Positions 8,179 to 60,314 of a DNA stretch of 64,000 bases are shown piece after piece (position 1 is the first letter of the stretch; every line of letters starts with the position of its first letter). The translations under genes and the position numbers were made by a program. Origin of the DNA: Squalus acanthias (lineage: Eukaryota); the NCBI GenBank assembly GCA_030390025.1, contig JASTWF010000093.1:992001-1056000 (forward strand), given 5' to 3'. Below the pieces are notes generated by a model. That model did not search any database. It had not been told where the DNA came from and was given only the letters and a program-made list of their open reading frames with translations.

Positions 8179-8336
8179 TCACGTAATGCCGTATTCATTT
8201 TGTTTCTCTCCATTTGCCAGTGAAACACGTTTCTTGCACACGGCTATGACTAGAATTACAATTATAAATTCAATAGCAAGGACAGTGACTGCAAGCATCC
8301 AGCGATTTCTTGTAAGAACGTGATCAGTTTTCATTT
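8179..8336 (-). CDS. B7-family/CD276-like gene copy A, exon 4 (TM + tail: EMKTDHVLTRNRWMLAVTVLAIEFIIVILVIAVCKKRVSLANGEKQNEYGIT*); spliced CDS 849 nt, 282 aa
   Basis: Acceptor TTTTTTTTCCCACAG|, phase 1; hydrophobic stretch followed by CKKR stop-transfer; TGA at 8181-8179. Not in the ORF track; translated by hand. Confidence 0.85.
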
Positions 8337-8659
8337 CTGTGGGAAAAAAAAGGAAGAAAACTATTGATCATTACGGCAGTGGTTTCAGTGCTGGTTTGGT
8401 CTTCTATGCTAAATCAGCTAAAAAAAGCCCACACATTTACACAGCGCCTTTCACAACCCCAAAGCGCTTTACAGCCAATGAAGTACTTCAAGTGGTCACT
8501 GTTGTAATGCAGGAAACGCAGCAGTCAATTTGCACACAGCAAGCTCCCACAAACAGTAATTAGATAATGACCAGATAATCTGTTTTTTAAAAGTGATGTT
8601 GGTTGAAGGATAATAATAGTCAGGACACCAGGGAGAACTCCCCTGCTCTTCATAATAGT

Positions 8660-9299
8660 CATGATGCGGAGATGCCGGTGTTGGACTGGGGTGGACAAAA
8701 TTGAGAGGTCGCACAACACCAGGTTATAGTCCAACAGTTTTATTTGAAATCACAAGCTTTCGGAACTATCGCTCCTTCCTCAGGTGAAGTAAATTGGATA
8801 CAGAATCGTCAGAGCATATATAGATGGAAAAAAAAGCATGTGTACTTTACAATTGCAGACCAATAAATTAAATCATCCTGACTATCTGCCGAGGTGTGAT
8901 AAAGTTAATTAAGTCAGCCAGGAAGGTACCACATCAAAAGACATAGCAAGATACAACTGAGACAATGAGGTGAAGTCGCAGGGGTTCTAACGTGTCAAAA
9001 GTTAGAACGTTAGAACCCCTGCGACTTCACCTCATTGTCTCAGTTGTATCTTGCTATGTCTTTTGATGTGGTACCTTCCTGGCTGACTTAATTAACTTTA
9101 TCACACCTCGGCAGATAGTCAGGATGCTTTAATTTATTGGTCTGCAATTGTAAAGTACACATGCTTTTTTTTCCATCTATATATGCTCTGACGATTCTGT
9201 ATCCAATTTACTTCACCTGAGGAAGGAGCGATAGTTCCGAAAGCTTGTGATTTCAAATAAAACTGTTGGACTATAACCTGGTGTTGTGCGACCTCTCAA
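8660..9299. mobile_element. Non-coding Penelope family 1 insertion made of two inverted pLTRs (hairpin), 12-bp TSD CTTCATAATAGT
   Basis: TSD at 8648-8659 and 9300-9311; arms 8701-8993 and 9007-9299; empty site in copy C near 53932-53943. Confidence 0.9.
9213..9250 (+). ncRNA. Minimal hammerhead ribozyme motif (mirror copy at 8750-8787, minus strand)
   Basis: tcac-CTGAGGA-a-ggagc[gata]gttcc-GAAA-gc-TT-gtga. Confidence 0.7.
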
Positions 9300-9575
9300 C
9301 TTCATAATAGTGCCATGGGATCTTTTACATCCACCTGAGAGCAGACAGGGCCTCTGTTTAACATCTCATCTGAAAGGCGGCACCTCCGACAGTGCAGCAC
9401 TCCCTCAGTATTGTGCTGGAGTGTCAGCCTAGATTTTTGTGCTCAAGTCTCTGGAGTTGGGCTTGAACCCACGACCTTCTACCACTGATGCATGGCTGAC
9501 ACCTAAAGAGAGATATTAGGCAGGGTGACTAAAAGCTTGGTCAAAGAGGTGGATTTTAAGGAAAGTTTTAAAAAG

Positions 9576-9613
<38 letters not shown>
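9576..9613. repeat. (AG)n microsatellite (also ~54208-54247; not expanded in the right arm near 32307)
   Basis: Direct reading. Confidence 0.9.
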
Positions 9614-10369
9614 GTTTAGGGAGGGAATTCTGGAGCGCAAGCTATAGATGGCTGCCAGTGGCAGTAGGGAATTCACAAGATGCCAGAGTTTGAACAATTC
9701 AGGGGTCTCAGAGGGTTGTAGGGCTAGAGAAGTGTACAGAGATAAGGAGGGATGAGGCCACAAAGGGACTTAACCACAAGGATAAGAATTTTTAATTTGA
9801 GGCGTTGGTAACCAGGTGCTAATGTAGGCCAGCGAGCACAGGGGGAGGGTTAGCAGATCGTAGTGCAGGATAGGAGAAGGGCAGCAGAGATTTGGATGAG
9901 CAGAAGTTTACATAGCGTGGAGGGTACAATACAGCATAGAGAGAACTTCTTATATCCTCTCCAAGGAGCGAAGGAGACATTAAGGAGAGTCTTCCCAAAT
10001 ATGGGAGCAGAATCCAAGTCACAAAAGGACTCGAGCTATAGAGAGTTAAAGGTATTTGGTAAGAAGTGTTTGGCACAAACGAGGAAACAGCTTTTGAGCA
10101 GCCGAGCAATGCAGCAGCTCCATTTGTGGTCTTGGGAGATAGTGAGGCCAAGAACATTGATAAGTCAAGAGAAGTGTAGGCCCATGAAAGTTAAAAAGGT
10201 GCAGCGGTTTATACTTGTGGAACCAGAAAGAAACTGGAACAGAAGTTTCTGAAGAACTGAAAGAAGATTTCCTATACTTCAAATGGCATGGAGATCAAGA
10301 TGTCGTGATTCAGCATTGTATCGCAAGACAACTGGAGGTTATGAGTACTGAGTGTAGGACACAACTTAC

Positions 10370-10654
10370 CTACAGAAAGACCAAATGTTCGAGAAACTGA
10401 TTGGTGTAGAACATCATTTCTTAATCTGAATGTGTAGTTAGAACTCCTATTGGTGTCATTGATTTGCAAAATACTCTGCAGGGAGTATAGACCATCTCCA
10501 CTTTGTTGGTACGAAGTCTCAGACAGTGAAGAAATATCCTCATTTTCTTCATTGTACCAGGAAACAGTAGCCTCAGGGTAACCTTGGGACTCGAATCTGA
10601 ACACTGTCCCGGATGGTGTTAACTGAATAAAAAAGTCAGGTTCCTTGTAGTATG
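10370..10654 (-). CDS. B7-family/CD276-like gene copy A, exon 3 (IgC-like domain, cysteine-free)
   Basis: Acceptor TTTTTAATCTACAG|, donor GTAG|GTAAGT, 285 nt. YYKEP, GYPEATVSW, GLYSLQSIL, RNDVLHQ parallel CD276 YSKP, GYPEAEVFW, GLFDVHSIL, RNPVLQQ. Confidence 0.9.
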
Positions 10655-11242
10655 CTGTAGATTAAAAAAAGGGTCATTAGAAACAAGAAATAAACGTGAT
10701 AAAAATAATGCCAACTAGGAATTTTGTTCCAGTTAATAACTAATTGAATAATGCAATAAAAGCTTTAAATGATCAAAAACAACAAATCCAAGTACAAACA
10801 GAATAGTAGATATTGCTGTTTGTGATCAATTTGGAGATATTCAAATCATTGTACCAAGTGATCAAATTGAAGGTGAAAATCCCACAATATCCTGCTGGCA
10901 GCTGTTCAGCCAAAATCATACGTAACCCTTGATGGTAAATATCAGTGGGCTTTTCACCTGCGAGGCCATCACAGTTCAGCCCGATCCTGGAGCCGTCCAC
11001 AGTCAGGGCTTGCTGAATAGCAAACGGGAGTGCCAACCCTAACCGAGGTGTGTCGATTGCACCAATAGCACTGTCCCAGCGGAGAGGAGCTAAACCAGCA
11101 CAATCTGGGTATCAAACCTGGTCTGTATGGCTCAGGCACTCAATGGTGAGACTCACTGAGCCATCAGGGGAGGCCAAGAAGCATGACTTTAATTATTCAG
11201 AACTGACTGAGAACAAAAATGAAAACTGAAAGAAGCATGTAC

Positions 11243-11593
11243 CTGCAAATATTAGAGACACAATGCCCTGGCCATTTCCTTTTCCATTCCTGACAAAGCA
11301 CACATACTGTCCAGCATCCTCTGGTCTCACTCTGTCCAGCTTCACTGAAACGTTCCCTTGTTTTATCTTCTCTGGGAATAAGCTTGCCCTCCCCGAATAC
11401 CGAGGGCTTTGGCGACTCAGTTGCTCTTTTCCAGAATAATAATAAACAACTTCCTCCGTCTCGACACGGTGCCAACTGATGAACAGCAGATCCAGTGACG
11501 ATTCACCCTGAGCTGTAAAGCTGCAACTCAGCACCGTGTACTGGCCGTAGATAGCAGTCACTGGTGCTTCTGGGGTGTGGACTTGAAACTGAG
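11243..11593 (-). CDS. B7-family/CD276-like gene copy A, exon 2 (IgV domain)
   Basis: Acceptor TTCACAG|, donor GCAG|GTACAT, 351 nt, phase 1-1. V-set motifs LSC, W, RASLF, GNVSVKL, EDAGQYVC resemble the CD276/butyrophilin IgV. Confidence 0.92.
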
Positions 11594-11884
11594 CTGTGAA
11601 TTCAAACAAATAGATTAGTAACAGCATTGTTCCAAGAGATTTAATCTTAACTCTTCAGAACATTTTATTTTAAATGGATGATTAATACGAGATTTAATCT
11701 TGAACACAGGAAAGCACTAAGAAGTAATTATCCCCACAGCTGTATTTTCTCTTCTCCAGAAGGGTTGATATTTCCTGGGTTGATATTTTCTGTGATCTAT
11801 TGAAATAGAAAAAGTTTTGTTCCCTCACCTCACAAAATGGACATCAAAAAAAGCAACTGCAGCAACATGATCAGTAAACATCAC

Positions 11885-13436
11885 AAAATAATGGGACTAA
11901 AAGACGACAGGTCCCCTGGACCAGATGGCCTGCATCCCAGGGTCTTAAAAGAAGTGGCTGCAGAGATAGTGGATACATTGGTTGTAATCTACCAAAATTC
12001 CCTGGACTCTGGAGAGGTCCCAGCGGATTGGAAAACCGCAAATGTAAAACCCCTATTCAAGAAAGGAGGGAGACAGAAAGCAGGAAACTATAGACCAGTT
12101 AGCCTAACATCTGTCGTTGGGAAAATGCTGGCGTCCTTCATTAAGGAAGCATTAGCAGGGCATTTGGAAAATCAATGCAGTCAAGCAGAGTCAGCATGGT
12201 TTTATGAAAGGGAAATCATTTTTAACAAATTTGCTGGAGTTCTTTGAGGATGTAACGAGCAGGGTGGATAAGGGTGAGCCAGTGGATGTGGTGTATTTGG
12301 ATTTCCAGAAGGCATTCAATAAGGTGCCACATAAAAGGTTACTGCATAAGATAAGAGCGCACAGAGTTGGGGGTAATATATTAGCATGGATAGAGAATTA
12401 GTTAACTAACAGAAAACAGAGAGTCGGGATAAATGGGTCATTTTCCGGTTGGCAAACGCTAACTAGTGGGGTGCCACAGGGATCGGTGCTGGGGCCTCAA
12501 CTATTTACAATCTACATTAATGACTTGGATGAAGGGACCGAGTGTACTGTAGCTAAGTTTGCAGAAGATACAAAGATGGGTGGGAAAGTAAGTTGTGCAA
12601 AGGGATATAGACAGGCTAAGTGAGTGGGCAAACATTTGGCAGATGGAGTATAATGTGGGAAAGTGCAAGGTTATCCACTTTGCCAGGAAAAATAAAAAAG
12701 CTAGTTATTTTTTTAAATGGAGATTACAAAATGCTTCAGTTTAGAGGGACCTGGGGGTCCTTGTGCATGAAACACAAAAAGTTAGCATGCAGGTGCAGCA
12801 AGTAATCAAAAAGGCAAATGGAATGTTGGCCTTTATTGCAAGGGGGTTGGAGTATAAAAGCAGAGAAGTCCTGCTACAACTGTACAGGGTATTGGTGAGA
12901 CCACACCTTGAGTACTGCATACAGTTTTGGTCTCCTTATTTAAGGAAGGCTATACTTGCATTGGAGGCAGTTCAGAGACGATTCACACAGTTGATTCCAG
13001 AGATGAGGGGATTGACTTATGAATAAAGGTTGAGCCTATACTCATTGGAATTTAGATGAATGAGAGGTGATCTTATTGAAACATACAAGATACTGAGGGG
13101 GCTCGACAAGGTAGATGCAGAGAGGATGTTTCCCCTCATGGGGAAATCTAGAACTCCGGGGCACAGTTTCAGAATAAAGGGTCGCCCTTTTAGAACCGAG
13201 ATGAGGAGGAATTTCTTCTCTGAGGGTCGTAAATCTGTGGAATTCTCTGCCCCAGAGAGCCTCGGAGGCTGGGTCATTAAACACATTTAAGGTGGAGATA
13301 GACAGATTTTTACAAGATAAGGGAGTGAAGGGTTATGGGGAGCGGGCGGGGAAGTGGCTTTGAGCCCAATATCAGCCATGATCTTATTGAATGGCAGAGC
13401 AGGCTCGAGGGGCCAAGTGACCTATTCCTGCTCCTA
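11885..13436 (+). mobile_element. CR1 LINE, 5'-truncated degenerate RT and 3' UTR (tail resumes at 15696-15712)
   Basis: SPGPDGLHPRVLKE, NYRPVSLTS, YLDFQKAF, RPHLEYC, RGDLIE; frameshifts and stops. Confidence 0.92.
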
Positions 13437-15680
13437 CAAAAAGAAAATACTGCAGATGCTGGAAATCTGAAATAAAAACAGAAAATGCTGGAGATACTCA
13501 GCAGGTCAGGCAGCATCTGTGAAGAGAGAAACAGAGTTAACGTTTCAGGTCGATGACCTTTCGTCAGAACTGGAAGAAAGCAGGAAATGGAACATATTTT
13601 TAAGCAAGTGTAGCAGCTGGGAAAGGGGGGAGGGGATGAAAGAACAAAAGGGAAGGTCTGTGATAGGATAGAAGGCAGGAGAGGTTAAGAGACATTAAGA
13701 GATATTCAAGGCAAAAGGAGATGGTAATGGGACAGGTTAAGAAACAAAGGATGGCTCTAGATGAAGTGTAAATTGCACTGGCAGAATGAAAGACAGCTGC
13801 CATGTGGGGGAGAAGAAAAGACACAAAGGTGTGGATAAAAAATATATATAGGATAGGGGCTGAGGTTATGATCTGAAATTGTTGAACTCTATGTTGAGTC
13901 CAGAAGGCTGTAAAGTGCCTAATCGAAAGATGAGGTGCTGTTCCTCGAGCTTACGCTGAGCTTCAGTGGAACAATGCAAGAGGCCGAGGACGGTGAGGTC
14001 TGAGTGGGAGTGGAGCGGAGAATTAAAGTGACAGGCGACCGGAAGCTCGGGGTCCCCCTTACGGACTGACCGGAGGTGTTCCGCAAAGCGGTCACCCAAT
14101 CTGCGTTTGGTCTCCCCAATGTAGAGGAGACCGCATCGTGAGCAGCAAATACAGTATACTAAATTGCAAGAAGTACAAGTAAATCGCTGTTTCACCTGGA
14201 AGGGGTGTTTCGGGCCCTGGACAGTGGGAAGGGGGGAGGTATAAGGGCATGTGTTGCATCTCCTGCGCGTGCACGGGAAGGTGCTGGGTGAAGGGGAAGG
14301 GGTGCTGGGGGTGATAGAGGAGTGGACTAGGGTGTCTCGGAGGGAGCGGTCCCTACGGAATGCTGAAAGGGGAGGTGAGGGGAAGATGCGTTTGGTGGTG
14401 GGATCACGCTGGAGGTGGCGGAAATGGCACAGGATGATCCGTTGAATGTGGAGGCTGGTGGGGTGAAAGGTGAGGACAAGGGGAACTCTATCGTGGTTCC
14501 GGGAGGGAGGGGCAGGGGTGAGGGCAAAAGTGCGGGAGATAGAACGGACACAGTCGAGGGCCGTGTCAACTACGGTAGAGGGGAATCCTCGGTTGAGGAA
14601 AAAGGAAGACATGTCGGAAGCACTGGTATGGAAGGTGGCATCGTCGGAGCAGATACGGCGGAGACGGAGAAACTGGGAGAATGGAAGAGAGTCCTTACAG
14701 GAGGCGGGGTGGGAGGAAGTATAGTCCAGGTAGCTGTGGGAGTCAGTGGGCTTTTAGTGAATGTTGGTCAATAACCTATCCCCAGAGATGGAGATGGAGA
14801 AGTCGAGGAAGGGAAGAGTCGGAGATGGACCATGTGAAGGTGAGGGAAGGGTGGAAATTGGAGGCAAAGTGAATGAAATTGTCTAGTTTAGGGCGAGAGC
14901 AGGAAACGGCACCGATACAGTCATCAATGTACCGGAAAAAGAGGTGAGGGAGGGGACCCGAGTAGGACTGGAACAAAGAGTGTTCCACATATCCCACGAA
15001 AAGGCAGGCATAGCTAGGAGCCATGTGGGTACCCATAGCAACACCTTTGATTTGGAGGAAATGAGTGGAGTCAAAGGAGAAGTTGTTCAATGTGAGAACA
15101 AGTTCAGCTAGGCGGAGGAGGGTGCTGGTGGATGGGGACTGGTTGGGCCTCTGTTCAAGGAAGAAGCGGAGCGCAGTCAAGCCATCCTGGTGGGGGATGT
15201 TACCTGGCCTGCTGAGTTTTTCCAGCACTTTCTGTTGTTATTTCAGTTTTCCAGCATCTGCAGTATTTTGCTATTGTATTAGAGGTGAGGGGAAGATCTG
15301 TTTGGTGGTGGGATCACACTGGAGGTGGCGGAAATGGTGGAGGATGATCCATTGAATGTGGAGGCTGGTGGGGTGAAAGGTGAGGACAAGGGGAACTCTA
15401 TCGTGGTTCTGGGAGGGAGGGGCAGGGGTGAGGGCAGAAGTGCGGGAGATAGAACGGACACGGTCAAGGGCCGTGTCAACCACAGTAGAGGGGAATCCTC
15501 GGTTGAGGAAAAAGGAAGACATGTCGGAAGCACTGGTATTCCCAACCCCTACACTTGCTTAAAAATCTGTTCCATTTCCTGCTTTTTTCCAGTTCTGACG
15601 AAAGGTCATCGACCTGATACGTTAACTCTGTTTCTCTCTTCACAGATGCTGCCTGACCTGCTGAGTATCTCCAGCATTTT
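13437..15680 (-). mobile_element. Penelope-like retroelement family 2, truncated and rearranged, 15-bp TSD CTATTCCTGCTCCTA, in intron 1 of copy A
   Basis: GVAMG, RYIDD, YKPTD, CxxC and YIGET...RFAEH (GIY-YIG); TSD at 13422-13436 and 15681-15695; empty site in copy B near 28015-28031. Confidence 0.92.
13535..13571 (-). ncRNA. Minimal hammerhead ribozyme motif of Penelope family 2 (duplicate at 58169-58205; GAAA->GATA mutant at 15591-15627 +)
   Basis: agtt-CTGACGA-a-aggtc[atc]gacct-GAAA-cg-TT-aact. Confidence 0.7.
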
Positions 15681-16067
15681 CTATTCCTGCTCCTATTTCT
15701 TATGTTCTTATGTAAATAGACAGGGGCTGTTTCTTTGAAATATTCTTTTCAGCTCCATGAACAATATTTACTTGGGAATTATCCACCTTGCCCATTAAAA
15801 TTACCCAACATCACAAGTGAAACCCTTCGGTCCCAGACCTGAAACGTTAACTCTGTTTCTCTCTCCACGGATGCTGCCTGACCTGCTGAGTATTTACAGC
15901 ATTTTCTGTTGTTATTTCAGATTTGCAGCATCTGCAGTATTTTGCTATTACAAGTGAAACTACTGTTATTGCTTTGGGCCATTGCTCAGTGGTGAAAAGA
16001 CCACCTGAAACTGTGTAGATCGTTCATTCAAATGTGTGCAAGGAAACAGTTACATTTAAAGACTTAC

Positions 16068-16122
16068 CTTGAGCCAAACCGAATTCAACAGCCACCAAAA
16101 CAGCGAGCAGACTTCTCACCAT
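16068..16122 (-). CDS. B7-family/CD276-like gene copy A, exon 1 (signal peptide MVRSLLAVLVAVEFGLAQ)
   Basis: ATG at 16122 in AGTATGG context; 18 mostly hydrophobic codons + 1 nt; donor CAAG|GTAAGT; phase 1 matches the IgV exon; homologous exon in copies B and C. Confidence 0.85.
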
Positions 16123-27312: not shown

Positions 27313-27359
27313 CTGGAGTTGCAAATTGTCCGGGGCGTTCCCAGCGGTCAGCCTAATGA

Positions 27360-27390
27360 TAATGACGTAGCAGGCAGGGACTATAAAAGA
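27360..27390 (+). promoter_or_regulatory. Putative core promoter of copy B: TATAAAA (27382-27388) with upstream TGACGTA CRE-like site
   Basis: TATA ~205 nt upstream of the ATG in a CpG-rich patch; the paralogous site in A reads TATGAAA (16323-16317). Confidence 0.45.
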
Positions 27391-27591
27391 GTGCGGGCTG
27401 CGTGCGCCGTCCCACAGAGAGAGCGGAGCCCCGAGGGTTCAGGTATCGGTCGTCGAGCTCTGTCCCGGGTGCCGCCGGAACCCTCCATAAGATGCGGGTC
27501 TTTAGCAGCTGTGGAAACCGATAAAGAAACGATTTTCACTGATCGTCGTCTTGTCTTGTCTTGTTTTGACAGCTGTCGAGGAGAGCAAAGT

Positions 27592-27646
27592 ATGGTGAGA
27601 AGTCTGCTCGCTGTTTTGGTGGCTGTTCAATTCAGTTTGGCTCGAG
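27592..27646 (+). CDS. B7-family/CD276-like gene copy B, exon 1 (signal peptide MVRSLLAVLVAVQFSLAR)
   Basis: ATG at 27592; donor CGAG|GTAAGT; paralog of copy A exon 1. Confidence 0.82.
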
Positions 27647-29875: not shown

Positions 29876-30226
29876 CTCAGTTTCAAGTCCACACCCCTGA
29901 AGCACCAGTGACTGCTGTCTACGGCCAGTACACGGTGCTGAGTTGCAGCTTTACAGCTCGGGGTGAATCGTCACTGTATCTGCTGTTCATCAGTTGGCAC
30001 CGTGTCGAGACAGAGGAAGTTGTTTATTATTATTCTGGAAAAGAGCAACTGAGTCGCCAAAGCCCTCGGTATTCGGGGAGGGCAAGCTTATTCCCAGAGG
30101 AGTTAAAACAAGGGAACGTTTCAGTGAAGCTGGACAGAGTGAGACCAGAGGATGCTGGACAGTACCTGTGCTTAGTCAGGAACACAAAAGGAAATGGCCA
30201 GGGCATTGTGTCTCTAATATTTGCAG
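29876..30226 (+). CDS. B7-family/CD276-like gene copy B, exon 2 (IgV)
   Basis: TTCACAG| acceptor, |GTACAT donor, 351 nt open, both Ig cysteines intact. Confidence 0.88.
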
Positions 30227-30811
30227 GTACATGCTTCTTTCAGTTTTCATTTTTGTTCTGTCAGTGCTGCAAATTAAAGTCATGCTTCTTGGCCTCCCCT
30301 GATGGCTCAGTGAGTCTCGCCATTGAGTGCCTGAGCCGTACAGACCAGGTTTGATGCCCAGACTCTGCTGGTTTAACTCCTCTCCGCTGGAGCAGTGCTA
30401 TTGGTGCAATCGACACACCTCGGTTAGGGTTGGCACTCCCATTTGCTATTCAGCAAGTCCTGCCTGTGGACGGCTCCAGGATCGGGCTGAACTGTGATGG
30501 CCTCGCAGGTGAAAAGCCCACTGATATTTACCATCAAGGGTTACGTATGATTTTGGCTGAACAGCTGCCAGCAGGATATTGTGGGATTTTCACCTTCAAC
30601 TTGATCACTTGGTACAATGATTTGAATATCTCCAAATTGATCACAAACAGCAATATCTACTATTCTGTTTGTACTTGGATTTGTTGTTCTTGAGCATTTA
30701 AAGCTTTTATTGCATTATTCAATTAGTTATTAACTGGAACAAGATTCCTAGTTGGCATTATTTTTATCAAGTTTATTTCTTGTTTCTAATGACCCTTTTT
30801 TTAATCTACAG

Positions 30812-31538
30812 CATACATGGTGGCATAGTGGTTAGCACTGGTGCCTCACAGCGCCAGGGACCCGGGTTCGAATCTGGCCTCGGGTGACTGTCTGTGTGGA
30901 GTTTGCACATTCTCCCCGTGTCTGCGTGGGTTTCCTCCGGGTGCTCCGGTTTCCTCCCACAGTCCAAAAATGTGTGGGTTAGGTTGATTTGGCTATGATA
31001 AATTGACCCTTAGTGTTAGGGGGGGATTAAATATGTGGGGTTATGGGGATAGGATGGGATATGTTAGGGGGAATTAAATACGTGGGGTTATGGGGATAGG
31101 GTGGGATATGTGTCGGTGCAGGCTCAATGGGGATTCTGTGTGAGAAAGCAGGGACAGGGTACTGGATTTGGATGATCAGCCATGATCGTATTGAATGGTG
31201 GAGCAGGCTCGACGGGCCGAATGGCCTACTTCTGCTCCTAGTTTCTATGTTTCTTTCCTACAAGGAACCTGACTTTTTTATCCAATTAACACCATCCGGG
31301 ACAGTGTTCAGATTCGAGTCCCAAGGTTACCCTGAGGCTACTGTTTCCTGGTACAATGAAGAAAATGAAGATATTTCCACACTGTCTGAGACTTCGTACC
31401 AACAAAGTGGAGATGGTCTATACTCCCTGCAGAGTATTCTGCAAATCAATGACACCAATAGGAGTTCTAGCTACACATTCAGATTAAGAAATGATGTTCT
31501 ACACCAATCAGTTTCTCGAACATTTGGTCTTTCTGTAG
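30812..31538 (+). pseudogene. Copy B exon 3 (IgC-like), interrupted after its 5th nt by a 442-bp SINE; coding parts 30812-30816 and 31259-31538
   Basis: The CATAC|TACAAGGAACCT of copy A is split by the insert; the original acceptor reads A-Y-M-V-A-TAG (30826-30828); donor is GTAAAT versus GTAAGT in A/C. May be rescued by alternative splicing (see findings). Confidence 0.75.
30817..31258 (+). mobile_element. tRNA-derived V-SINE (HE1-like) with CR1-type tail, inserted in exon 3 of gene B
   Basis: A box TGGCATAGTGG, B box GGTTCGAATC, V-core GTGGAGTTTGCACATTCTCCCCGTGTCTGCGTGGGTTTCCTCCGGGTGCTCCGGTTTCCTCCCA; absent in copies A and C. Confidence 0.88.
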
Positions 31539-33068
31539 GTAAATTGTGTCCAACACTCAGTACTCATAACCTCCAGTTGTCTTCCGATACAATTCTGAAT
31601 CACGACATCTTGATCTCCATGCCATTTGAAGTAAAGGAAATCTTCTTTCAGTTCTTCAGAAACTTCTGTTCCAGTTTCTTTCTGGTTCCACAAGTATAAA
31701 CCGCTGCACCTTTTTAACTTTCATGGCCCTACACTTCTTGACTTATCAATGTTCTTGGCCTCACTATCTCCCAAGACCACAAATGGAGCTGCTGCATTGC
31801 GCGGCTGCTCTCAAAAGCTGTTTCCTCGTTTGTGCCAAACACTTCTTACCAAATACCTTTAACTCTCTATAGCTCGAGTCCTTTTGTGACTTGGATTCTG
31901 CTCCCATATTTGGGAAGACTCTCCTTAATGTCTCCCTCGCTCCTTGGAGAGGATATAAGAAGTTCTCTCTATGCTGTATTGTACCCTCCACGCTATGTAA
32001 ACTTCTGCTCATCCAAAACACTGCTGCCCTTCTCCTATCCTGCACTACGATCTGCTAACCCTCTCCCTGTGCTCGCTGGCCTACATTAGCTCCTGGTTAC
32101 CAACGCCTCAAATTAAAAATTCTTATCCTTGTGGTTAAAACCCTTCATGGCCTCGTCCCTCCTAATCTCTCTGTACCCTTCTCTAGCCCTACAACCCTCT
32201 GAGACCTCTGCATTGCTCCAACTCTGGCATCTTGTGAATTCCCTACTGCCATCGCCCTGCCACTGGCAGCCATCTATAGCTTGCGCTCCAGAATTCCCTC
32301 CCTAAACCTCTCTCTTTTCTCCTCCCTTTTTTAAAACTTTCCTTAAAATCCACCTCTTTGACCAAGCTTTTAGTCACCCCTTCTAATATCTCTCTTTTTA
32401 GGTGTCAGCCTTGCATCAGGTAGGAGAATGTTGTGGGTTCAAGCCCAACTCCAGAGACTTGAGCACAAAAATCTAGGCTGACACTCCAGCACTGTGCTGA
32501 GGGAGTGCTGCACTGTCGGGGGTGCCGCCTTTCAGATGAGACGTTAAACCGAGGCACCGTCTGCTCTCTCAGGTGGACGTAAAAGATCCCATGGCACTAT
32601 TGCGAAGAGCAGGGGAATTCTCCCCAGTGTCCTGATCATTATTATCCTTCAACCAACATCACTTTTAAAAAAAAAACACCAGATTATCTGGTCATTATCT
32701 AATTACTGTTTGTGGGAGCTTGCTGTTCACAAATTGACTGCCACGTTTCCTGCATTACAACAGTGTAGTACCTCATTGGCTGTAAAGCGCTTTGGGGTTG
32801 TGAAAGGTGCTGTATAAATACGTGTTTTTTTTGGCTGATTACGCTACTGTGAAGCACCTTGGGATGTTTTTCTACATTAAAGGCGCTATATCAATGCACT
32901 TTGTTTCTGGTTTAGGCTACTACTGTGTTATCCAACGTTTAAAAATACTTTCACCATACAATTACATTGTTAAATGTGGTTGTATTTTAAACTGTATTAG
33001 CATAGAAGACCAAACCAGCACTGAAACCACTGCCGTAATGATCAATAGTTTTCTTCCTTTCTTCACAG

Positions 33069-33208
33069 AAATGAAAACTGATCACGTTCTTACAAGAAAT
33101 CGCTGGATGCTTGCAGTCAATGTCCTTGCTATTGCATTTATAATTGTAATTCTAGTCATAGCCGTGTGCAAGAAACGTGTTTCACTGGCAAATGGAGAAA
33201 CAAAATGA
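33069..33208 (+). CDS. B7-family/CD276-like gene copy B, exon 4 (TM + short tail ...AVNVLAIAFIIVILVIAVCKKRVSLANGETK*)
   Basis: Acceptor CTTTCTTCACAG|; C-terminal part of track ORF 32807..33208. Confidence 0.8.
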
Positions 33209-36200
33209 ACACGGCATTTCGTGATGGATCTTTCAAGAAAATACATGTGATTGGACGCTGCCCCTTCAGCCATGAAAACCGATATTTACTGTCGCAACCC
33301 ACTTTTTACTAATGTGGACATTTCCTCTTAACCCTCACTACTAAATTTCAACATGCAGAATAACAAGTGCCATCTGATTGATCCCTTTTCTAATTTGTAA
33401 CTTCCAAACTCTATTTATATAATACAATCGTGTTTTTTGTCCATCTTCTGCTGGACCAGGAGTGGTCATCTTCTGCTGGACCAGGACAGCTTAATGCAAT
33501 AAAGCTTTGTATTTAATTCTATTTTCTTCTTTTGTCATTGTCTCCGAAAATTGCTTTAGTTATTTTAGCACCCTGTCCTCCTTTAGTTTAACACTTGCGC
33601 TGTGAATTTCTTCAGGCCTTCTCCCGCTCCCCCGTCATCACTTTGGAAACCCTGTTTTCCTACGTAAACTGACTGCTGCTGAAGTTAAGGCGGCACTGTG
33701 TGTGGGGGGGTGAAAAACCCCAAAGAATTTCCTGGCAATTGTCTGTGAGCTGAGACACTGACTGAGGGTATTTTGAGGATCAGTGTTCCACACACAGTAA
33801 ACACTGGGAGCCAGAAACCACATCCGAGTCTGATTCTTCCCCGTCAGTCTGGGGCACTAAGGGAATTGTAGCACGTTACTCCAATTAGGAATTGAACCTG
33901 GGGCCTTCTTATGTATGGCTGTTATATACTGGCTATGTCAGCTGTACCATCAGATGACCTCAAAGAACCATGCTCGAACCCATTGCTACTCCCAGATCCT
34001 ATTTTTGGGTAAAAGTGGGTGGGCTAGGAATGGCATTAGTGCAGAGTACTATTTTAAAAAGATTGCATTGTAACACTACACAGAACTGACTTTAAATTAA
34101 GAACCTTATAAGTTTAAGGGTGAAATGGCACTCTGATGCACCTATAAGATGCAAACCCCACAGCACTACTAACCCTACCCAGACTAAAGTGGTTACTCCA
34201 TACCGGTTCCCCAGAACCACTACTGGAACCAGCAAAAAGTTCAACTTAAAGTCAAGCTTGTCTCGTCCTCTTCGATACAAGCCACACAAAGGGTGCACTT
34301 ATTTGGAAATTTGTGAATCTTTGGAATTCTCTACCCCAGAGGGCTGTGGATGCTCAGTCGTTGAGTATAGATTTCTGGACACTAAAGGAACCAAGGGATA
34401 TGGGGATCGGGTGGGAATGTGGAGTTGATGTAGAAGATCGGCCGTGATAGTGAATGGCTCGAAGGGCCATGTGGCCGACTCCTGCTCCTATTTCTTATGT
34501 TCTTAAGCTGACAACTTGGGAGGAGACACGAGAACAACGTGGCTCAAAATAAATCACGAGACGAGCGCCTATTCTCACAAAAAGGATCCTAAGCAATTGA
34601 AGTTACAAACCAGGGAGAGCCGATGGGAGAAGTTTATGAAAGAACAGAAGGAGAGAAAAAACCATGTGATGGGAGCAAGGGGGGGACTGGTCATGGCGTG
34701 AAAGAAACCAATGCCCTGCACTGCCCACTCTACTACTTTCCTGTCATGGTTCCACTTTCTTGTGTGTTGTGGTTGAATATTCCCATTTTTTTTAAACTCT
34801 AGCTTTTCCCTCTGTTTTTGGCACTGTCCACTCCAAGCTTTGGTTCATGGAATTTCAACCTTGAAACTGAATACATTTTGCAGTTAAATCTGTCTCCTGA
34901 AGCAGCACAGACTGAGGCCAACATACAATCATATCCTCACGCAGCGATGAATATAATTCTTCAAATCCTCTGGGTGGGAGGAGTCTCGCATGGAGCATAA
35001 AAGCCGGCATAGAGCAGTTGGGCCGAATGGCCTGTTTCTGTGCTGTAGACTCGATGTAACTCGATGAATCCCAATTTCTAACAATACATGGTGTAGAACT
35101 CACAGCAGCTAATCATGGAAAAGAAAAACACTGGGATCCCCACTGCCAACATTTTCAGTCACAGATCAGCCATGATCTCATTGAATGGCGGAACAGGCTC
35201 GAGGGGCTGAATGGCCTCCTCCTGTTCCTGTGTTCCAGACAGTAAAGAGGCAATCTGCTCACACTTCCTGTCCGTGCTGTTTTGTAAATGACCAGCAGGT
35301 GGCGGTTGAGACCAGTCCAGGGTGACTTGCCCTCTTGCTTTCCATCTGTGCCTGGGGAGCTGTTAAGTGTTCGTTCATGGCTTAAAAATTCGTCATGAAA
35401 GAAAAGCAGGACTTACTCAGCAGGTCAGGCAACATCTGTGGAGAAACAGAAGTCAGTCAGTCGCAAATTTAAGGTTGACAGCAGGTTATACCTATCAGGA
35501 AAGGATGAACAGGCTGGGTCTCTTTTCTCTTGAAAAGAGAAGGCTGAGGGGTGACCTAATAGAGGTCTTTAAAATTATGAAAGATTTTGATAGAGTAGAC
35601 ACACAAAGAGTGTTTCCACTTGTGGGGAAGAGTAAAAAGAGAAAGAGCTGCAAATGCTGGAAATCTGAAACAAATTCAGAAAAACACATGGCAGGTCCAT
35701 CAACATCTGTAAAGGGTTTACACTCTGCCTCAGAACTGAAGATTGGACTCTGAGTGATGAACTAGACAGCTGTTGGCACCTGTGCACCACACAACACTTG
35801 AGTTACAAACTTCAGGAGAGGAGAAAATTGGAGGTAAAATACCAATAAAAGTGTCCCTTTTAGATTGTGGGCAGAAGAGAAGGCTGAAGTGCGTGAGGAG
35901 TTCGACAGGTTTGAGGCCTGGGGAAAGAATTAGTGTCGGAAAACAGTGAAACCAATCTTGATTTCAACACAATGGAGGTGCCGGGAGGAGTAGGAGTTTG
36001 CACGACAGTGAATTTGCAGTTAATAAGGAACAAGAGAGGTAAATTCGGGGAAGCACTGACCATAGCAGTATTGATAAAATAGAAGCAAGAAAGACTGCAG
36101 TAGAAAGAGAGGTTGGACACTATAGGTGAGGGGGATTTTTTTTTAATTCATTCACAGGATGTGGGCATCACCTGCAAGGCCAGCATTTATTGCCCATCTC

Positions 36201-39470: not shown

Positions 39471-39479
39471 ATGCTATAA

Positions 39480-53462: not shown

Positions 53463-53620
53463 TCACGTAATGCCGTATTCATTTTGTTTCTCTCCATTTG
53501 CCAGTGAAACACGTTTCTTGCACACGGCTATGACTAGAATTACAATTATAAATTCAATAGCAAGGACAGTGACTGCAAGCATCCAGCGATTTCTTGTAAG
53601 AACGTGATCAGTTTTCATTT
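53463..53620 (-). CDS. B7-family/CD276-like gene copy C, exon 4 (TM + tail ...NEYGIT*)
   Basis: Matches copy A exon 4; acceptor at 53622-53621, stop at 53465-53463. Confidence 0.85.
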
Positions 53621-54207
53621 CTGTGGGAAAAAAAAGGAAGAAAACTATTGATCATTACGGCAGTGGTTTCAGTGCTGGTTTGGTCTTCTATGCTAAATCA
53701 GCTAAAAAAAGCCCACACATTTACACAGCGCCTTTCACAACCCCAAAGCGCTTTACAGCCAATGAAGTACTTCAAGTGGTCACTGTTGTAATGCAGGAAA
53801 CGCAGCAGTCAATTTGCACACAGCAAGCTCCCACAAACAGTAATTAGATAATGACCAGATAATCTGTTTTTTAAAAGTGATGTTGGTTGAAGGATAATAA
53901 TAGTCAGGACACCAGGGAGAACTCCCCTGCTCTTCATAATAGTGCCATGGGATCTTTTACATCCACCTGAGAGCAGACAGGGCCTCTGTTTAACATCTCA
54001 TCTGAAAGGCGGCACCTCCGACAGTGCAGCACTCCCTCAGTATTGTGCTGGAGTGTCAGCCTAGATTTTTGTGCTCAAGTCTCTGGAGTTGGGCTTGAAC
54101 CCACGACCTTCTACCACTGATGCATGGCTGACACCTAAAGAGAGATATTAGGCAGGGTGACTAAAAGCTTGGTCAAAGAGGTGGATTTTAAGGAAAGTTT
54201 TAAAAAG

Positions 54208-54247
<40 letters not shown>

Positions 54248-55003
54248 GTTTAGGGAGGGAATTCTGGAGCGCAAGCTATAGATGGCTGCCAGTGGCAGTA
54301 GGGAATTCACAAGATGCCAGAGTTTGAACAATTCAGGGGTCTCAGAGGGTTGTAGGGCTAGAGAAGTGTACAGAGATAAGGAGGGACGAGGCCACAAAGG
54401 GACTTAACCACAAGGATAAGAATTTTTAATTTGAGGCGTTGGTAACCAGGTGCTAATGTAGGCCAGCGAGCACAGGGGGAGGGTTAGCAGATCGTAGTGC
54501 AGGATAGGAGAAGGGCAGCAGAGATTTGGATGAGCAGAAGTTTACATAGCGTGGAGGGTACAATACAGCATAGAGAGAACTTCTTATATCCTCTCCAAGG
54601 AGCGAAGGAGACATTAAGGAGAGTCTTCCCAAATATGGGAGCAGAATCCAAGTCACAAAAGGACTCGAGCTATAGAGAGTTAAAGGTATTTGGTAAGAAG
54701 TGTTTGGCACAAACGAGGAAACAGCTTTTGAGCAGCCGAGCAATGCAGCAGCTCCATTTGTGGTCTTGGGAGATAGTGAGGCCAAGAACATTGATAAGTC
54801 AAGAGAAGTGTAGGCCCATGAAAGTTAAAAAGGTGCAGCGGTTTATACTTGTGGAACCAGAAAGAAACTGGAACAGAAGTTTCTGAAGAACTGAAAGAAG
54901 ATTTCCTTTACTTCAAATGGCATGGAGATCAAGATGTCGTGATTCAGCATTGTATCGCAAGACAACTGGAGGTTATGAGTACTGAGTGTAGGACACAACT
55001 TAC

Positions 55004-55288
55004 CTACAGAAAGACCAAATGTTCGAGAAACTGATTGGTGTAGAACATCATTTCTTAATCTGAATGTGTAGTTAGAACTCCTATTGGTGTCATTGATTTG
55101 CAGAATACTCTGCAGGGAGTATAGACCATCTCCACTTTGTTGGTACGAAGTCTCAGACAGTGAAGAAATATCCTCATTTTCTTCATTGTACCAGGAAACA
55201 GTAGCCTCAGGGTAACCTTGGGACTCGAATCTGAACACTGTCCCGGATGGTGTTAACTGAATAAAAAAGTCAGGTTCCTTGTAGTATG
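55004..55288 (-). CDS. B7-family/CD276-like gene copy C, exon 3 (IgC-like, cysteine-free)
   Basis: Intact 285-nt exon; protein identical to copy A as far as I can read. Confidence 0.9.
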
Positions 55289-55876
55289 CTGTAGATTAAA
55301 AAAAGGATCATTAGAAACAAGAAATAAACTTGATAAAAATAATGCCAACTAGGAATTTTGTTCCAGTTAATAACTAATTGAAAATTGCAATAAAAGCTTT
55401 AAATGATCAAAAACAACAAATCCAAGTACAAACAGAATAGTAGATATTGCTGTTTGTGATCAATTTGGAGATATTCAAATCATTGTACCAAGTGATCAAA
55501 TTGAAGGTGAAAATCCCACAATATCCTGCTGGCAGCTGTTCAGCCAAAATCATACATAACCCTTGATGGTAAATATCAGTGGGCTTTTCACCTGCGAGGC
55601 CATCACAGTTCAGCCCGATCCTGGAGCCGTCCACAGGCAGGGCTTGCTGAATAGCAAACGGGAGTGCCAACCCTAACCGAGGTGTGTCGATTGCACCAAT
55701 AGCACTGCTCCAGCGGAGAGGAGCTAAACCAGCACAATCTGGGTATCAAACCTGGTCTGTATGGCTCAGGCACTCAATGGTGAGACTCACTGAGCCATCA
55801 GGGGAGGCCAAGAAGCATGACTTTAATTTTTCAGAACTGACTGAGAACAAAAATGAAAACTGAAAGAAGCATGTAC

Positions 55877-56227
55877 CTGCAAATATTAGAGACACAATGC
55901 CCTGGCCATTTCCTTTTCCGTTCCTGACAAAGCACACATACTGTCCAGCATCCTCTGGTCTCACTCTGTCCAGCTTCACTGAAACGTTCCCTTGTTTTAA
56001 CTCCTCTGGGAATAAGCTTGTCCTCCCCGAATACCGAGGGCTTTGGCGACTCAGTTGCTCTTTTCCAGAATAATAATAAACAACTTCCTCCGTCTCGACA
56101 CGGTGCCAACTGATGAACAGCAGATCCAGTGACGATTCACCCTGAGCTGTAAAGCTGCAACTCAGCACCGTGTACTGGCCGTAGACAGCAGTCACTGGTG
56201 CTTCTGGGGTGTGAACTTGAAACTGAG
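55877..56227 (-). CDS. B7-family/CD276-like gene copy C, exon 2 (IgV)
   Basis: Same splice sites as copy A; 4 amino-acid differences from A. Confidence 0.92.
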
Positions 56228-56518
56228 CTGTGAATTCAAACAAATAGATTAGTAACAGCATTGTTCCAAGAGATTTAATCTTAACTCTTCAGAATATTTT
56301 ATTTTAAATGGATGATTAATACGAGATTTAATCTTGAACACAGGAAAGCACTAAGAAGTAATTATCCCCACAGCTGTATTTTCTCTTCTCCAGAAGGGTT
56401 GATATTTCCTGGGTTGATATTTTCTGTGATCTATTGAAATAGAAAAAGTTTTGTTCCCTCACCTCACAAAATGGACATCAAAAAAAGCAACTGCAGCAAC
56501 ATGATCAGTAAACACCAC

Positions 56519-58070
56519 AAAATAATGGGACTAAAAGACGACAGGTCCCCTGGACCAGATGGCCTGCATCCCAGGGTCTTAAAAGAAGTGGCTGCAGAGA
56601 TAGTGGATGCATTGGTTGCAATCTACCAAAATTCCCTGGACTCTGGAGAGGTCCCAGCGGATTGGAAAACCACAAATGTAACACCCCTATTTAAGAAAGG
56701 AGGGAGACAGAAAGCAGGAAACTATAGACCAGTTAGCCTAACATCTGTCGTTGGGAAAATGCTGGCGTCCTTCATTAAGGAAGCATTAGCAGGGCATTTG
56801 GAAAATCAATGCAGTCAAGCAGAGTCAGCATGGTTTTATGAAAGGGAAATCATTTTTAACAAATTTGCTGGAGTTTATTGAGGATGTAACGAGCAGGGTG
56901 GATAAGGGTGAGCCAGTGGATGTGGTGTATTTGGATTTCCAGAAGGCATTCAATAAGGTGCCACATAAAAGGTTACTGCATAAGATAAGAGCGCACAGAG
57001 TTGGGGGTAATATATTAGCATGGATAGAGAATTAGTTAACTAACAGAAAACAGAGAGTCGGGATAAATGGGTCATTTTCCAGTTGGCAAACGCTAACTAG
57101 TGGGGTGCCACAGGGATCGGTGCTGGGGCCTCAACTATTTACAATCTACATTAATGACTTGGATGAAGGGACCGAGTGTACTGTAGCTAAGTTTGCAGAA
57201 GATACAAAGATGGGTGGGAAAGTAAGTTGTGCAAAGGGATATAGACAGGCTAAGTGAGTGGGCAAACATTTGGCAGATGGAGTATAATGTGGGAAAGTGC
57301 AAGGTTATCCACTTTGGCAGGAAAAATAAAAAAGCTAGTTATTTTTTTAAATGGAGATTACAAAATGCTTCAGTTTAGAGGGACCTGGGGGTCCTTGTGC
57401 ATGAAACACAAAAAGTTAGCATGCAGGTGCAGCAAGTAATCAAAAAGGCAAATGGAATGTTGGCCTTTATTACAAGGGGGTTGGAGTATAAAAGCAGAGA
57501 AGTCCTGCTACAACTGTACAGGGTATTGGTGAGACCACACCTTGAGTACTGCATACAGTTTTGGTCTCCTTATTTAAGGAAGGCTATACTTGCATTGGAG
57601 GCAGTTCAGAGACGATTCACACAGTTGATTCCAGAGATGAGGGGATTGACTTATGAATAAAGGTTGAGCCTATACTCATTGGAATTTAGATGAATGAGAG
57701 GTGATCTTATTGAAACATACAAGATACTGAGGGGGCTCGACAAGGTAGATGCAGAGAGGATGTTTCCCCTCGTGGGGAAATCTAGAACTCAGGGGCACAG
57801 TTTCAGAATAAAGGGTCGCCCTTTTAGAACCGAGATGAGGAGGAATTTCTTCTCTGAGGGTCGTAAATCTGTGGAATTCTCTGCCCCAGAGAGCCTCGGA
57901 GGCTGGGTCATTAAACACATTTAAGGTGGAGATAGACAGATTTTTACAAGATAAGGGAGTGAAGGGTTATGGGGAGCGGGCGGGGAAGTGGCTTTGAGCC
58001 CAATATCAGCCATGATCTTATTGAATGGCAGAGCAGGCTCGAATGGCCAAGTGGCCTATTCCTGCTCCTA
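56519..58070 (+). mobile_element. CR1 LINE, duplicate in intron 1 of gene C
   Basis: Offset 44634 from 11885-13436. Confidence 0.92.
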
Positions 58071-60314
58071 CAAAAAGAAAATACTGCAGATGCTGGAAAT
58101 CTGAAATAAAAACAGAAAATGCTGGAGATACTCAGCAGGTCAGGCAGCATCTGTGAAGAGAGAAACAGAGTTAACGTTTCAGGTCGATGACCTTTCGTCA
58201 GAACTGGAAAAAAGCAGGAAATGGAACATATTTTTAAGCAAGTGTAGCAGCTGGGAAAGGGGGGAGGGGATGAAAGAACAAAAGGGAAGGTCTGTGATAG
58301 GATAGAAGGCAGGAGAGGTTAAGAGACATTAAGAGATATTCAAGGCAAAAGGAGATGGTAATGGGACAGGTTAAGAAACAAAGGATGGCTCTAGATGAAG
58401 TGTAAATTGCACTGGCAGAATGAAAGACAGCTGCCATGTGGGGGAGAAGAAAAGACAAAAAGGTGTGGATAAAAAATATATATAGGATAGGGGCTGAGGT
58501 TATGATCTGAAATTGTTGAACTCTACGTTGAGTCCAGAAGGCTGTAAAGTGCCTAATCGAAAGATGAGGTGCTGTTCCTCGAGCTTACGCTGAGCTTCAG
58601 TGGAACAATGCAAGAGGCCGAGGACGGTGAGGTCTGAGTGGGAGTGGAGCAGAGAATTAAAGTGACAGGCGACCAGTAGCTCAGGGTCCCCCTTACGGAC
58701 TGACCGGAGGTGTTCCGCAAAGCGGTCACCCAATCTGCGTTTGGTCTCCCCAATGTAGAGGAGACCGCATCGTGAGCAGCAAATACAGTATACTAAATTG
58801 CAAGAAGTACAAGTAAATCGCTGTTTCACCTGGAAGGGGTGTTTCGGGCCCTGGACAGTGGGAAGGGGGGAGGTATAAGGGCATGTGTTGCATCTCCTGC
58901 GCGTGCACGGGAAGGTGCTGGGTGAAGGGGAAGGGGTGCTGGGGGTGATAGAGGAGTGGACTAGGGTGTCTCGGAGGGAGCGGTCCCTACGGAATGCTGA
59001 AAGGGGAGGTGAGGGGAAGATGCGTTTGGTGGTGGGATCACGCTGGAGGTGGCGGAAATGGCACAGGATGATCCGTTGAATGTGGAGGCTGGTGGGGTGA
59101 AAGGTGAGGACAAGGGGAACTCTATCGTGGTTCCGGGAGGGAGGGGCAGGGGTGAGGGCAAAAGTGCGGGAGATAGAACGGACACAGTCGAGGGCCGTGT
59201 CAACTACGGTAGAGGGGAATCCTCGGTTGAGGAAAAAGGAAGACATGTCGGAAGCACTGGTATGGAAGGTGGCATCGTCGGAGCAGATACGGCGGAGACG
59301 GAGAAACTGGGAGAATGGAAGAGAGTCCTTACAGGAGGCGGGGTGGGAGGAAGTATAGTCCAGGTAGCTGTGGGAGTCAGTGGGCTTGTAGTGAATGTTG
59401 GTCAATAACCTATCCCCAGAGATGGAGATGGAGAAGTCGAGGAAGGGAAGAGTCGGAGATGGACCATGTGAAGGTGAGGGAAGGGTGGAAATTGGAGGCA
59501 AAGTGAATGAAATTGTCTAGTTTAGGGCGAGAGCAGGAAACGGCACCGATACAGTCATCAATGTACCGGAAAAAGAGGTGAGGGAGGGGACCCGAGTAGG
59601 ACTGGAACAAAGAGTGTTCCACATATCCCACGAAAAGGCAGGCATAGCTAGGAGCCATGTGGGTACCCATAGCAACACCTTTGATTTGGAGGAAATGAGT
59701 GGAGTCAAAGGAGAAGTTGTTCAATGTGAGAACAAGTTCAGCTAGGCGGAGGAGGGTGCTGGTGGATGGGGACTGGTTGGGCCTCTGTTCAAGGAAGAAG
59801 CGGAGCGCAGTCAAGCCATCCTGGTGGGGGATGTTACCTGGCCTGCTGAGTTTTTCCAGCACTTTCTGTTGTTATTTCAGTTTTCCAGCATCTGCAGTAT
59901 TTTGCTATTGTATTAGAGGTGAGGGGAAGATCTGTTTGGTGGTGGGATCACACTGGAGGTGGCGGAAATGGTGGAGGATGATCCATTGAATGTGGAGGCT
60001 GGTGGGGTGAAAGGTGAGGACAAGGGGAACTCTATCGTGGTTCTGGGAGGGAGGGGCAGGGGTGAGGGCAGAAGTGCGGGAGATAGAACGGACACGGTCA
60101 AGGGCCGTGTCAACCACAGTAGAGGGGAATCCTCGGTTGAGGAAAAAGGAAGACATGTCGGAAGCACTGGTATTCCCAACCCCTACACTTGCTTAAAAAT
60201 CTGTTCCATTTCCTGCTTTTTTCCAGTTCTGACGAAAGGTCATCGACCTGATACGTTAACTCTGTTTCTCTCTTCACAGATGCTGCCTGACCTGCTGAGT
60301 ATCTCCAGCATTTT
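58071..60314 (-). mobile_element. Penelope-like family 2 (duplicate, intron 1 of copy C)
   Basis: 333-aa ORF 58500..59501 with RT thumb and GIY-YIG; offset 44634. Confidence 0.92.

Follow-up and report, generated by a model that had tools for sequence, protein, structure and literature searches.

The window, by which we mean the whole stretch of 64,000 nt that was analysed, consists of repeat-rich vertebrate DNA in which one gene is present as three copies, A, B and C. Copy B lies on the plus strand, and copies A and C lie on the minus strand. The products of A and C are intact proteins of 282 aa each, composed of a leader, an IgV domain, an IgC domain and a transmembrane (TM) segment. Flanking host genes were not recognised within the 64,000-nt window. 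The features of the three copies are as follows:

8182..16122, minus strand: paralog A, an intact 282-aa frame, exon 3 without the insertion
27381..27591, plus strand: predicted core promoter and 5' UTR of B, with a TATA-like motif at 27381-89, a possible 5' UTR donor at 27443 and an acceptor AG ending at 27572
27592..27646, plus strand: exon 1 of B, signal peptide with a phase-1 donor, aligning with ortholog leaders
29876..30226, plus strand: exon 2 of B, IgV domain (Pfam V-set, E 2.7e-13; shark and ray identity 62-78%)
31258..31538, plus strand: remainder of exon 3 of B, IgC domain without the canonical cysteine pair (Pfam C2-set_3, E 3.9e-7; two replacement and four silent changes against C)
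33069..33208, plus strand: coding part of exon 4 of B, with stalk, TM helix carrying T248N and E253A, and short tail (2-nt deletion; TGA at 33206-08)
33498..33503, plus strand: AATAAA in the last exon of B, common to A and C
53466..60756, minus strand: paralog C, an intact 282-aa frame, exon 3 without the insertion

On the strength of their sequences, A, B and C are best described as chondrichthyan CD276 (B7-H3)-like genes, and their orthology to CD276 is to be read as similarity only. The IgV exon shares 62-78% identity with 10 proteins from nine shark and ray species, nine of these proteins being named CD276 antigen-like; the host is accordingly a shark or one of its relatives. A profile of the family compared with the PDB matches CD276 best over IgV and IgC (single-unit E 1e-33 to 1e-32), with PD-L1 (3e-26) and the butyrophilins behind it. 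The family shows the B7 layout of signal peptide, IgV, IgC and TM segment in phase-1 exons, and the canonical Cys-Trp-Cys core of the IgV domain is present. For an AlphaFold model of the Heptranchias ortholog, the best Foldseek matches are PD-L1, B7-H3 and ICOS-L, which is a hint only at a pLDDT of 57 (below 50 at the linker). The canonical disulfide pair of the IgC domain is absent: both cysteines are missing in A, B, C and 10/10 orthologs, Phe sits at or beside both canonical places in the shark and ray family, and one ortholog has a single IgC Cys elsewhere in the domain. The cysteine-less domain still scores as a B7-type C2 set. The exon that encodes it is also the exon that is skipped in some isoforms (see below). 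Furthermore, a Glu lies in the middle of the membrane helix in 9/9 orthologs with a TM exon and also in A and C, and its conservation suggests assembly with a partner chain. A search of the largely open-access literature, including passages of PMC12151841 and PMC3172298, found nothing on the shark CD276-like family or the insertion in B.

A and B form an inverted duplication (3700-20716 against 23242-35270) around a 2.5-kb LINE-like spacer (20717-23241), and C (47363-63075) repeats the A block in direct orientation. Over 9144 nt, A and C share 99.4% identity, yet they differ at four IgV residues (11243-11593, 55877-56227). Their differences are concentrated at about 10200-13500, a pattern suggestive of patchy gene conversion or of IgV domains that diversify. 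B diverges from C by 8-17% at the promoter and the 3' end (27361-27570, 33285-33640) and by 1-8% per 100 nt inside the gene; judged from these values, the duplication may predate what the gene-body divergence implies. The upstream region of B (26430-27360) contains internal duplications and is unrelated to the upstream regions of A and C except for one 41-nt match.

Several further elements lie in and around the copies. At about 29675-29772, all three copies have a stretch resembling a decayed leader, with a hydrophobic run and an in-frame stop after an acceptor-like site, and with neither ATG nor GT. A dead signal-peptide exon at about 29725-29772 was considered as a lesion specific to B and rejected because the stretch is identical in A, B and C and the true leader starts at 27592. 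GC-rich minisatellites lie just beyond the 3' ends of A and C and are absent at B, and a 29-nt repeat is present in 59 copies; these tandem repeats occupy 3710-7753, 51082-53035 and 37773-39471. Intron 3 of A alone contains an insert of ~640 nt (8660-9299) that reads in the alignment as two inverted halves. At 42409-45471 there are two long open frames whose motifs resemble those of endonucleases and reverse transcriptases; classed by eye, they are probably a fairly intact LINE.

Aligned with A and C, B carries an insertion of 442 nt whose limits are 30816-31257 or, as one C is ambiguous, 30817-31258. It lies 4-5 nt after the native acceptor AG (30810-11), inside the IgC exon, as the initial annotation had it in placing a SINE about 5 nt into exon 3 of B; A and C are without it. 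The insert has clean ends and is composed of retroposon parts, and no target-site duplication was found flanking it in the alignment with A and C. With the insert, exon 3 measures 727 nt, which is long for an internal vertebrate exon. The features in and around the insertion are:

30810..30815, plus strand: native exon 3 acceptor and first 4 nt of exon 3, identical to A, with a CTAAT branch motif at -23
30816..31131, plus strand: sense tRNA-head SINE, presumably HE1/V-SINE-like, with 61 related translated copies
30826..30828, plus strand: first in-frame stop, TAG, where 32/38 aligned related copies have Gln
30884..30988, plus strand: SINE-internal donor candidates at 30884, 30978 and 30983 and a closed-frame acceptor ending at 30962; P0054 and P0064 exit the SINE nearby
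31026..31078, plus strand: two ATTAAA hexamers (31026, 31073), then G/T-rich sequence, possible weak poly(A) signals
31132..31257, plus strand: CR1-type LINE 3' end with tail hairpin and short tandem tail, aligning with four CR1-type ends elsewhere in the window
31240..31241, plus strand: AG proposed as in-frame 'rescue' acceptor, with an open frame, weak by heuristic and without yTnAy
31539..31544, plus strand: exon 3 donor, GTAAAT in B only against GTAAGT in A and C (alignment)

The name HE1/V-SINE-like is a presumption based on the descriptions in PMC3747384, PMC4824008 and PMC2911107. Motifs resembling the Pol III A and B boxes were found by eye at 30821-31 and 30865-74, and ARAGORN and Rfam returned no meaningful tRNA or Rfam match for the SINE head. 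V-SINEs have a conserved central V domain of about 80 bp; the central part of the SINE in B recurs in translated repeats of named proteins from shark, bichir and opah, which fits the V-SINE range. Among the 61 relatives, which were found via one translated frame, the far-reaching ones continue into their own short tail; the B copy breaks off at ~31131, lacks its own last ~25 nt and contains an internal 47-nt duplication (31014-31108). V-SINEs have a single LINE-shared 3' tail, and in B the tail-start motif occurs twice. The tail hairpin in the CR1-type end has a z of -2.1. Taken together, the insert in B reads as a SINE/CR1 chimera or a tail-swapped subfamily, for which template switching, two insertions or a tail-swapped subfamily are the possible origins; template switching is a described route to such chimeras (PMC5729268). 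Two rough clocks, the nearest related copies and the 47-nt duplication, give the insert a divergence of 3-4%, both being crude, since the copies compared belong to other species and the duplication could be older than the insertion. This divergence is comparable to or above the length of the B branch and hence the insertion is not brand new.

The near identity of A and C is such as two haplotypes could show, and a missing target-site duplication would also fit an assembly or haplotype artefact in the copy number or the insertion. We consider such an artefact very improbable: most intron stretches of B stand 3-4.5% apart from those of A and C, and its 3' UTR about 12%, the clean ends and retroposon parts of the insert speak against it, and an artefact concerning A and C would leave B unaffected.

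The insertion leaves three ways of treating exon 3. Splicing to the native acceptor would give IgV-A-Y-M-V-A-stop, a protein of 140 aa that ends at the TAG at 30826-30828, and our translation reproduces what had been claimed for this route. Of the 61 SINE matches, 38 align at the stop and 32 of these have Gln there, where open-frame matches cannot show stops; the TAG is probably private to the copy in B. From the native acceptor, the donor candidates at 30884, 30978 and 30983 would define exons of 72, 166 and 171 nt, all containing the TAG, and would make the first part of exon 3 a poison exon. The named shark isoforms P0054 and P0064 exonise a related SINE and exit it at about the same place. 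The exon lengths given by donors 30884 and 30983 (72 and 171 nt) are divisible by three, and with the family Gln instead of the private stop these two exons would have been open. The stop lies 55-154 nt before the junction for the 72-171-nt exons, and 55-710 nt before it over all exons that start at the native acceptor. Nonsense-mediated decay (NMD) follows a 50-55-nt rule. Hence, NMD is predicted for the exons that start at the native acceptor.

Decay would be avoided if the transcript ended within the insert. B would then produce a secreted single IgV by way of the native acceptor, the SINE stop and cleavage after an ATTAAA, which yields an NMD-free last exon as L2 does in soluble PD-L1. Two ATTAAA hexamers lie 200-250 nt past the stop and are followed by G/T-rich sequence, the downstream donor is weakened, exon 4 looks relaxed, and the Heterodontus paralog P0090 is annotated as IgV-only. 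CD274-L2A provides a precedent within the B7 family (PMC6877088). However, a lone hexamer rarely makes a 3' end, as described in PMC13709765, and SINE-internal donors are located upstream of the hexamers. Moreover, exons 1-2 of B show no sign of constraint (4-6 replacements against 5.4 under neutrality), and the product ends in 12 hydrophobic residues (mean Kyte-Doolittle 2.4), which may hinder secretion. A secreted IgV is thus, in our estimation, quite improbable.

The second way leads through the AG at 31240-31241, which the initial annotation had proposed as an in-frame rescue acceptor supplied by the tail of the SINE. Its coordinates and its frame are borne out: joined to phase-1 exon 2, it gives V-S-M-F-L-S-Y-K-E-P and an open product of 280 aa, in which A-Y in the inter-domain linker is replaced by V-S-M-F-L-S at the cost of 4 nt of exon, and the Y-x-x-P matching human CD276 is retained. 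This linker swap is probably tolerable. The AG is, however, not part of the SINE; it belongs to the CR1-type 3' end fused behind it. Splice-site scoring disfavours a role as rescue acceptor, as our own uncalibrated pyrimidine-tract heuristic, applied to 12 sites, assigns 7.5 to the tail AG, 10.5 to the native exon 3 acceptor and 8.5 each to the AGs at 30962 and 31264. The four native acceptors score 8.5-14.5, and the exon 4 acceptor, at 14.5, is the best of the 12 sites. A further AG at 31263-31264 is indeed out of frame when joined directly to exon 2. An 8-nt microexon (30812-30819) with a weak GT (30820), followed by the AG at 31263-64, restores the frame with one residue fewer, a route via 31265 that exists on paper and is unlikely.

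An in-frame AG is in itself unremarkable. The 8-nt tail unit is stop-free in all frames, and thus a tail AG would be in frame about one time in three; among the AGs inside the insert, 5/21 are in frame and open. As for its origin, 9/14 related tails have, in the same frame, Val where B has Val, a residue that fixes only the G of the AG and leaves the preceding A to be deduced. The AG occurs in 0/11 other tail-like matches within the window. On these sequences, it probably came with the element and was not gained later. A gain after insertion is unsupported given the Val in 9/14 tails, and the 0/11 in-window tails point the other way. The hydrophobic linker created by this splice was also considered as a possible membrane anchor and rejected (best 19-residue Kyte-Doolittle mean 1.18, against 3.2 for the true TM segment).

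If the tail AG were a working acceptor, B would make a near-full-length IgV-IgC-TM protein with V-S-M-F-L-S in place of A-Y. The open frame, the loss of only 4 nt of exon and the kept Y-x-x-P are in line with this, and the low-confidence model places the change after the final strand of the IgV and ahead of the first strand of the IgC. The site has an AG-free zone of 33 nt and, among 8291 AGs, ranks in the top 5.8%; the AG is missing from all 11 other tail-like matches in the window; and the remainder of exon 3 carries two replacements although the insert, at 3-4% divergence, is not brand new. By analogy, such an acceptor can dominate, as in dog RAB3GAP1 (PMC4751546). On the other hand, the score of the site is lower than those of all four native acceptors and of the AGs at 30962 and 31264. 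A yTnAy branch motif is missing (as is a strict match at the native exon 4 acceptor), and the site has 6 T where native sites have 10-11. Its tract is paired in the tail hairpin (unpaired probability 0.25), which is a weak point since the native exon 1 acceptor is equally paired (0.27-0.29). The 9/14 related tails with Val fit an AG that arrived with the element, and splicing would have to bypass an intact, stronger acceptor and use a weakened donor. A database protein with the rescue junction was searched for and none was found, the best match being 78% identical, so that proteins of the host itself were evidently not among the matches. We regard the acceptor at 31240-41 as improbable as the main route.

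The third way is to skip exon 3. As initially noted, joining exon 2 to exon 4 keeps the frame in B, and the product is an IgV-TM protein of 181 aa. Searching for short relatives gave three matches, two of which are IgC-skipped isoforms X2, from Pristiophorus japonicus (P0089) and Mobula hypostoma (P0091); in both, exactly the IgC exon is missing and the junction equals that of the skip in B. These isoforms are database annotations and hold at annotation level only. In these two species, full-length and IgC-skipped forms are both annotated, as expected of an ancestral gene that made both, and the agreement of the two lineages, shark and ray, suggests that the cassette exon is old. The third match is P0090, a second CD276-like paralog of Heterodontus francisci annotated as IgV-only; IgC loss in duplicates of this gene may have occurred in more than one lineage. 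Skipping is the only one of the three routes supported from outside the window, and it uses only strong native sites. Furthermore, the exon 3 donor in B is weakened to GTAAAT, as the initial annotation had recognised; the change is confined to B (A and C have GTAAGT), and the weaker donor would favour skipping.

The CpG observed/expected ratio of the core promoter is 1.04 in B and 0.98 in C, compared to 0.62 for the whole window, and the perfect TATA and the GT at 27443 occur in B only, being missing in A and C. B has an intact start codon, intact IgV cysteines and a full set of GT-AG sites, which would be so anyway with P 0.59-0.77. From these features B looks transcribable. Among the changes found in B only, a 2-nt deletion in the GA repeat of exon 4 (about 33195-33198) leads to the TGA at 33206-08 and a tail shorter by six residues. 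The earlier claim that the remaining exons of B contain no stops thus holds in the main but had missed this frameshift. E253A removes the membrane Glu and T248N introduces a new polar Asn five residues earlier, and at the position of F118L 9/9 aligned orthologs have F or Y. In exon 2, the variants private to B lie at codons 47, 53, 116, 118 and 122.

B and C differ by 14 replacement and 8 silent changes (pN/pS 0.53). Parsimony assigns 6-10 replacements to the B branch against 10.9 expected under neutrality (P 0.08-0.47), which is compatible with neutrality and, at the low end, with constraint. The chance under neutrality of no nonsense change is 0.19-0.49, and that of at most one indel is 0.41. 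The frames of B are therefore open no more than neutral drift allows, and open frames are no proof of life. By exon, pN/pS is underpowered, the counts being too small to separate neutral from constrained evolution. Exons 1-2, with the counts given above, show no visible constraint, and exon 4 has two replacements and no silent change in addition to the frameshift. Between B and C, conservation is highest in exon 3 (pN 0.009, pS 0.062; two replacements, four silent changes), both replacements of this exon lead to residues seen in orthologs, and 0-2 changes are seen where 3.9 are expected under neutrality, in a weak test (P 0.02-0.26). This conservation supports the use of the tail acceptor a little. 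The 460 nt of intron after exon 3 are only 1.5% diverged, as a conversion tract would be.

These data bear on the possibility that B is a young pseudogene, transcribed or not, which the insertion killed or which was already dispensable when the insertion came, its in-frame products being unselected leftovers. The changes confined to B (insertion, weaker donor, E253A, T248N, tail frameshift, F118L), a pN/pS of 0.53 with neutrality not rejected, an unsurprising lack of nonsense changes and two intact adjoining paralogs all fit this view, as does a precedent in human, where non-coding copies of a triplicated gene are transcribed and Alu is exonised (PMC2231382). Yet the CpG-rich promoter is kept with a better TATA match than in A and C, the start codon, IgV cysteines and GT-AG sites are intact (if expectedly so, at P 0.59-0.77), and the in-frame route annotated in other species is still open. 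In addition, A and C themselves differ at four IgV residues, so replacements in the IgV need not signal decay. We take a pseudogene to be unlikely, though it has to be reckoned with seriously. The suggestion in the initial annotation that B is a live gene keeps its footing in the promoter, start codon and splice dinucleotides, and loses ground through E253A, the tail frameshift and open frames at the neutral level. A benign-looking insertion removes a proof of death and is not by itself proof of life.

The explanation that we favour, at roughly even chances, is that the retroposon pushed B onto the old IgV-TM splice form, with the tail AG as at most a minor leak. B would have been a redundant copy of a chondrichthyan CD276-like gene, and its IgC exon a cassette that could be skipped even before the insertion. 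Into this exon, 4-5 nt from its start, landed the sense SINE/CR1 chimera that is observed there. The native acceptor would now lead into the SINE, where all exons starting at it carry the stop at codon 5, and the resulting transcripts would be NMD targets; the stop is observed and the decay is predicted from it. What would be left as an in-frame route on strong native sites is the skip from exon 2 to exon 4, yielding the single-Ig IgV-TM protein of 181 aa. The match of this junction to the annotated isoforms is observed, and B presumably uses it. Some findings speak against the switch to the IgV-TM form. Skipping needs exon 4, the exon hit by the frameshift and two replacements, among them the Glu loss. 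Exon 3, which would be dead, shows the highest conservation of all exons in the comparison with C. Finally, in the analogous dog RAB3GAP1 the internal SINE acceptor won and skipping was faint. It is rather doubtful that B went further and became a live, selected single-Ig B7-H3-like member, locked on the IgC-skipped form, in which IgV residues 116, 118 and 122 (second IgV cysteine/FG loop) were then altered and the membrane Glu gave way to an Asn located five residues before it; the result would be a shortened ligand whose partner or rule of assembly differs.

Provided that it is transcribed, B offers a natural test of how a duplicate immune gene survives a retroposon hit. If its IgV-TM form is selected, a retroposon would have fixed one ancestral splice form in a paralog of a checkpoint-ligand family, in the oldest lineage with adaptive immunity; if it is not, B is an ordinary decaying duplicate. 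The disulfide-less IgC, the conserved membrane Glu and the skippable IgC exon may interest comparative immunologists more than the insertion does.

As a gene, B resembles CD276/B7-H3 in its leader-IgV-IgC-TM layout and in its best PDB matches, and differs from it in belonging to a shark and ray family without both canonical IgC cysteines and with a Glu in the membrane helix. Within the B7 family, CD274-L2A is also a case in which a retroelement ends the protein before the membrane anchor, as could happen in B; the element in CD274-L2A is intronic, both Ig domains are retained and the product is proven, whereas that of B would be a putative IgV only (PMC6877088). The partitioning of splice forms between duplicates is a described process, in which one duplicate becomes fixed on one isoform of an alternatively spliced ancestor (PMC4417111), as proposed here. 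B would differ in having a retroposon as the would-be trigger, and A and C probably keep both forms. Relaxed exonisation in duplicates is likewise known (PMC2231382).

A close counterpart of the insertion is exon 7 of dog RAB3GAP1 (PMC4751546). There, a SINE within the exon combines stops with an internal acceptor that preserves the frame, transcripts without the exon occur as well, and the internal SINE acceptor prevailed over faint skipping; PTPLA is cited in the same paper as a similar case. B shares with RAB3GAP1 the exonic insertion with stops, the in-frame internal AG and the in-frame skip. RAB3GAP1, however, is a single-copy gene with a disease allele proven by RT-PCR, a 14-nt duplication and a poly(A) tract (PMC4751546), whereas B is a duplicate gene whose SINE/CR1 chimera has no target-site duplication and would cost 4 nt of exon, with an acceptor that is a candidate. 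The SINE in dog merle PMEL likewise lies at an intron-exon boundary and supplies a cryptic acceptor, but it is antisense and its poly(T) serves as pyrimidine tract (PMC7349775), while the insert in B is in sense orientation with a short LINE tail and leaves the native acceptor untouched. In zebrafish, sense HE1-type elements are exonised via splice sites in their 5' conserved region; these elements are intronic and create new cassettes (PMC2911107), in contrast to B, where a coding exon houses the element and the host acceptor is available to it. An exonic SINE with an in-frame internal acceptor is thus a known pattern, of which B is a new instance at this locus.
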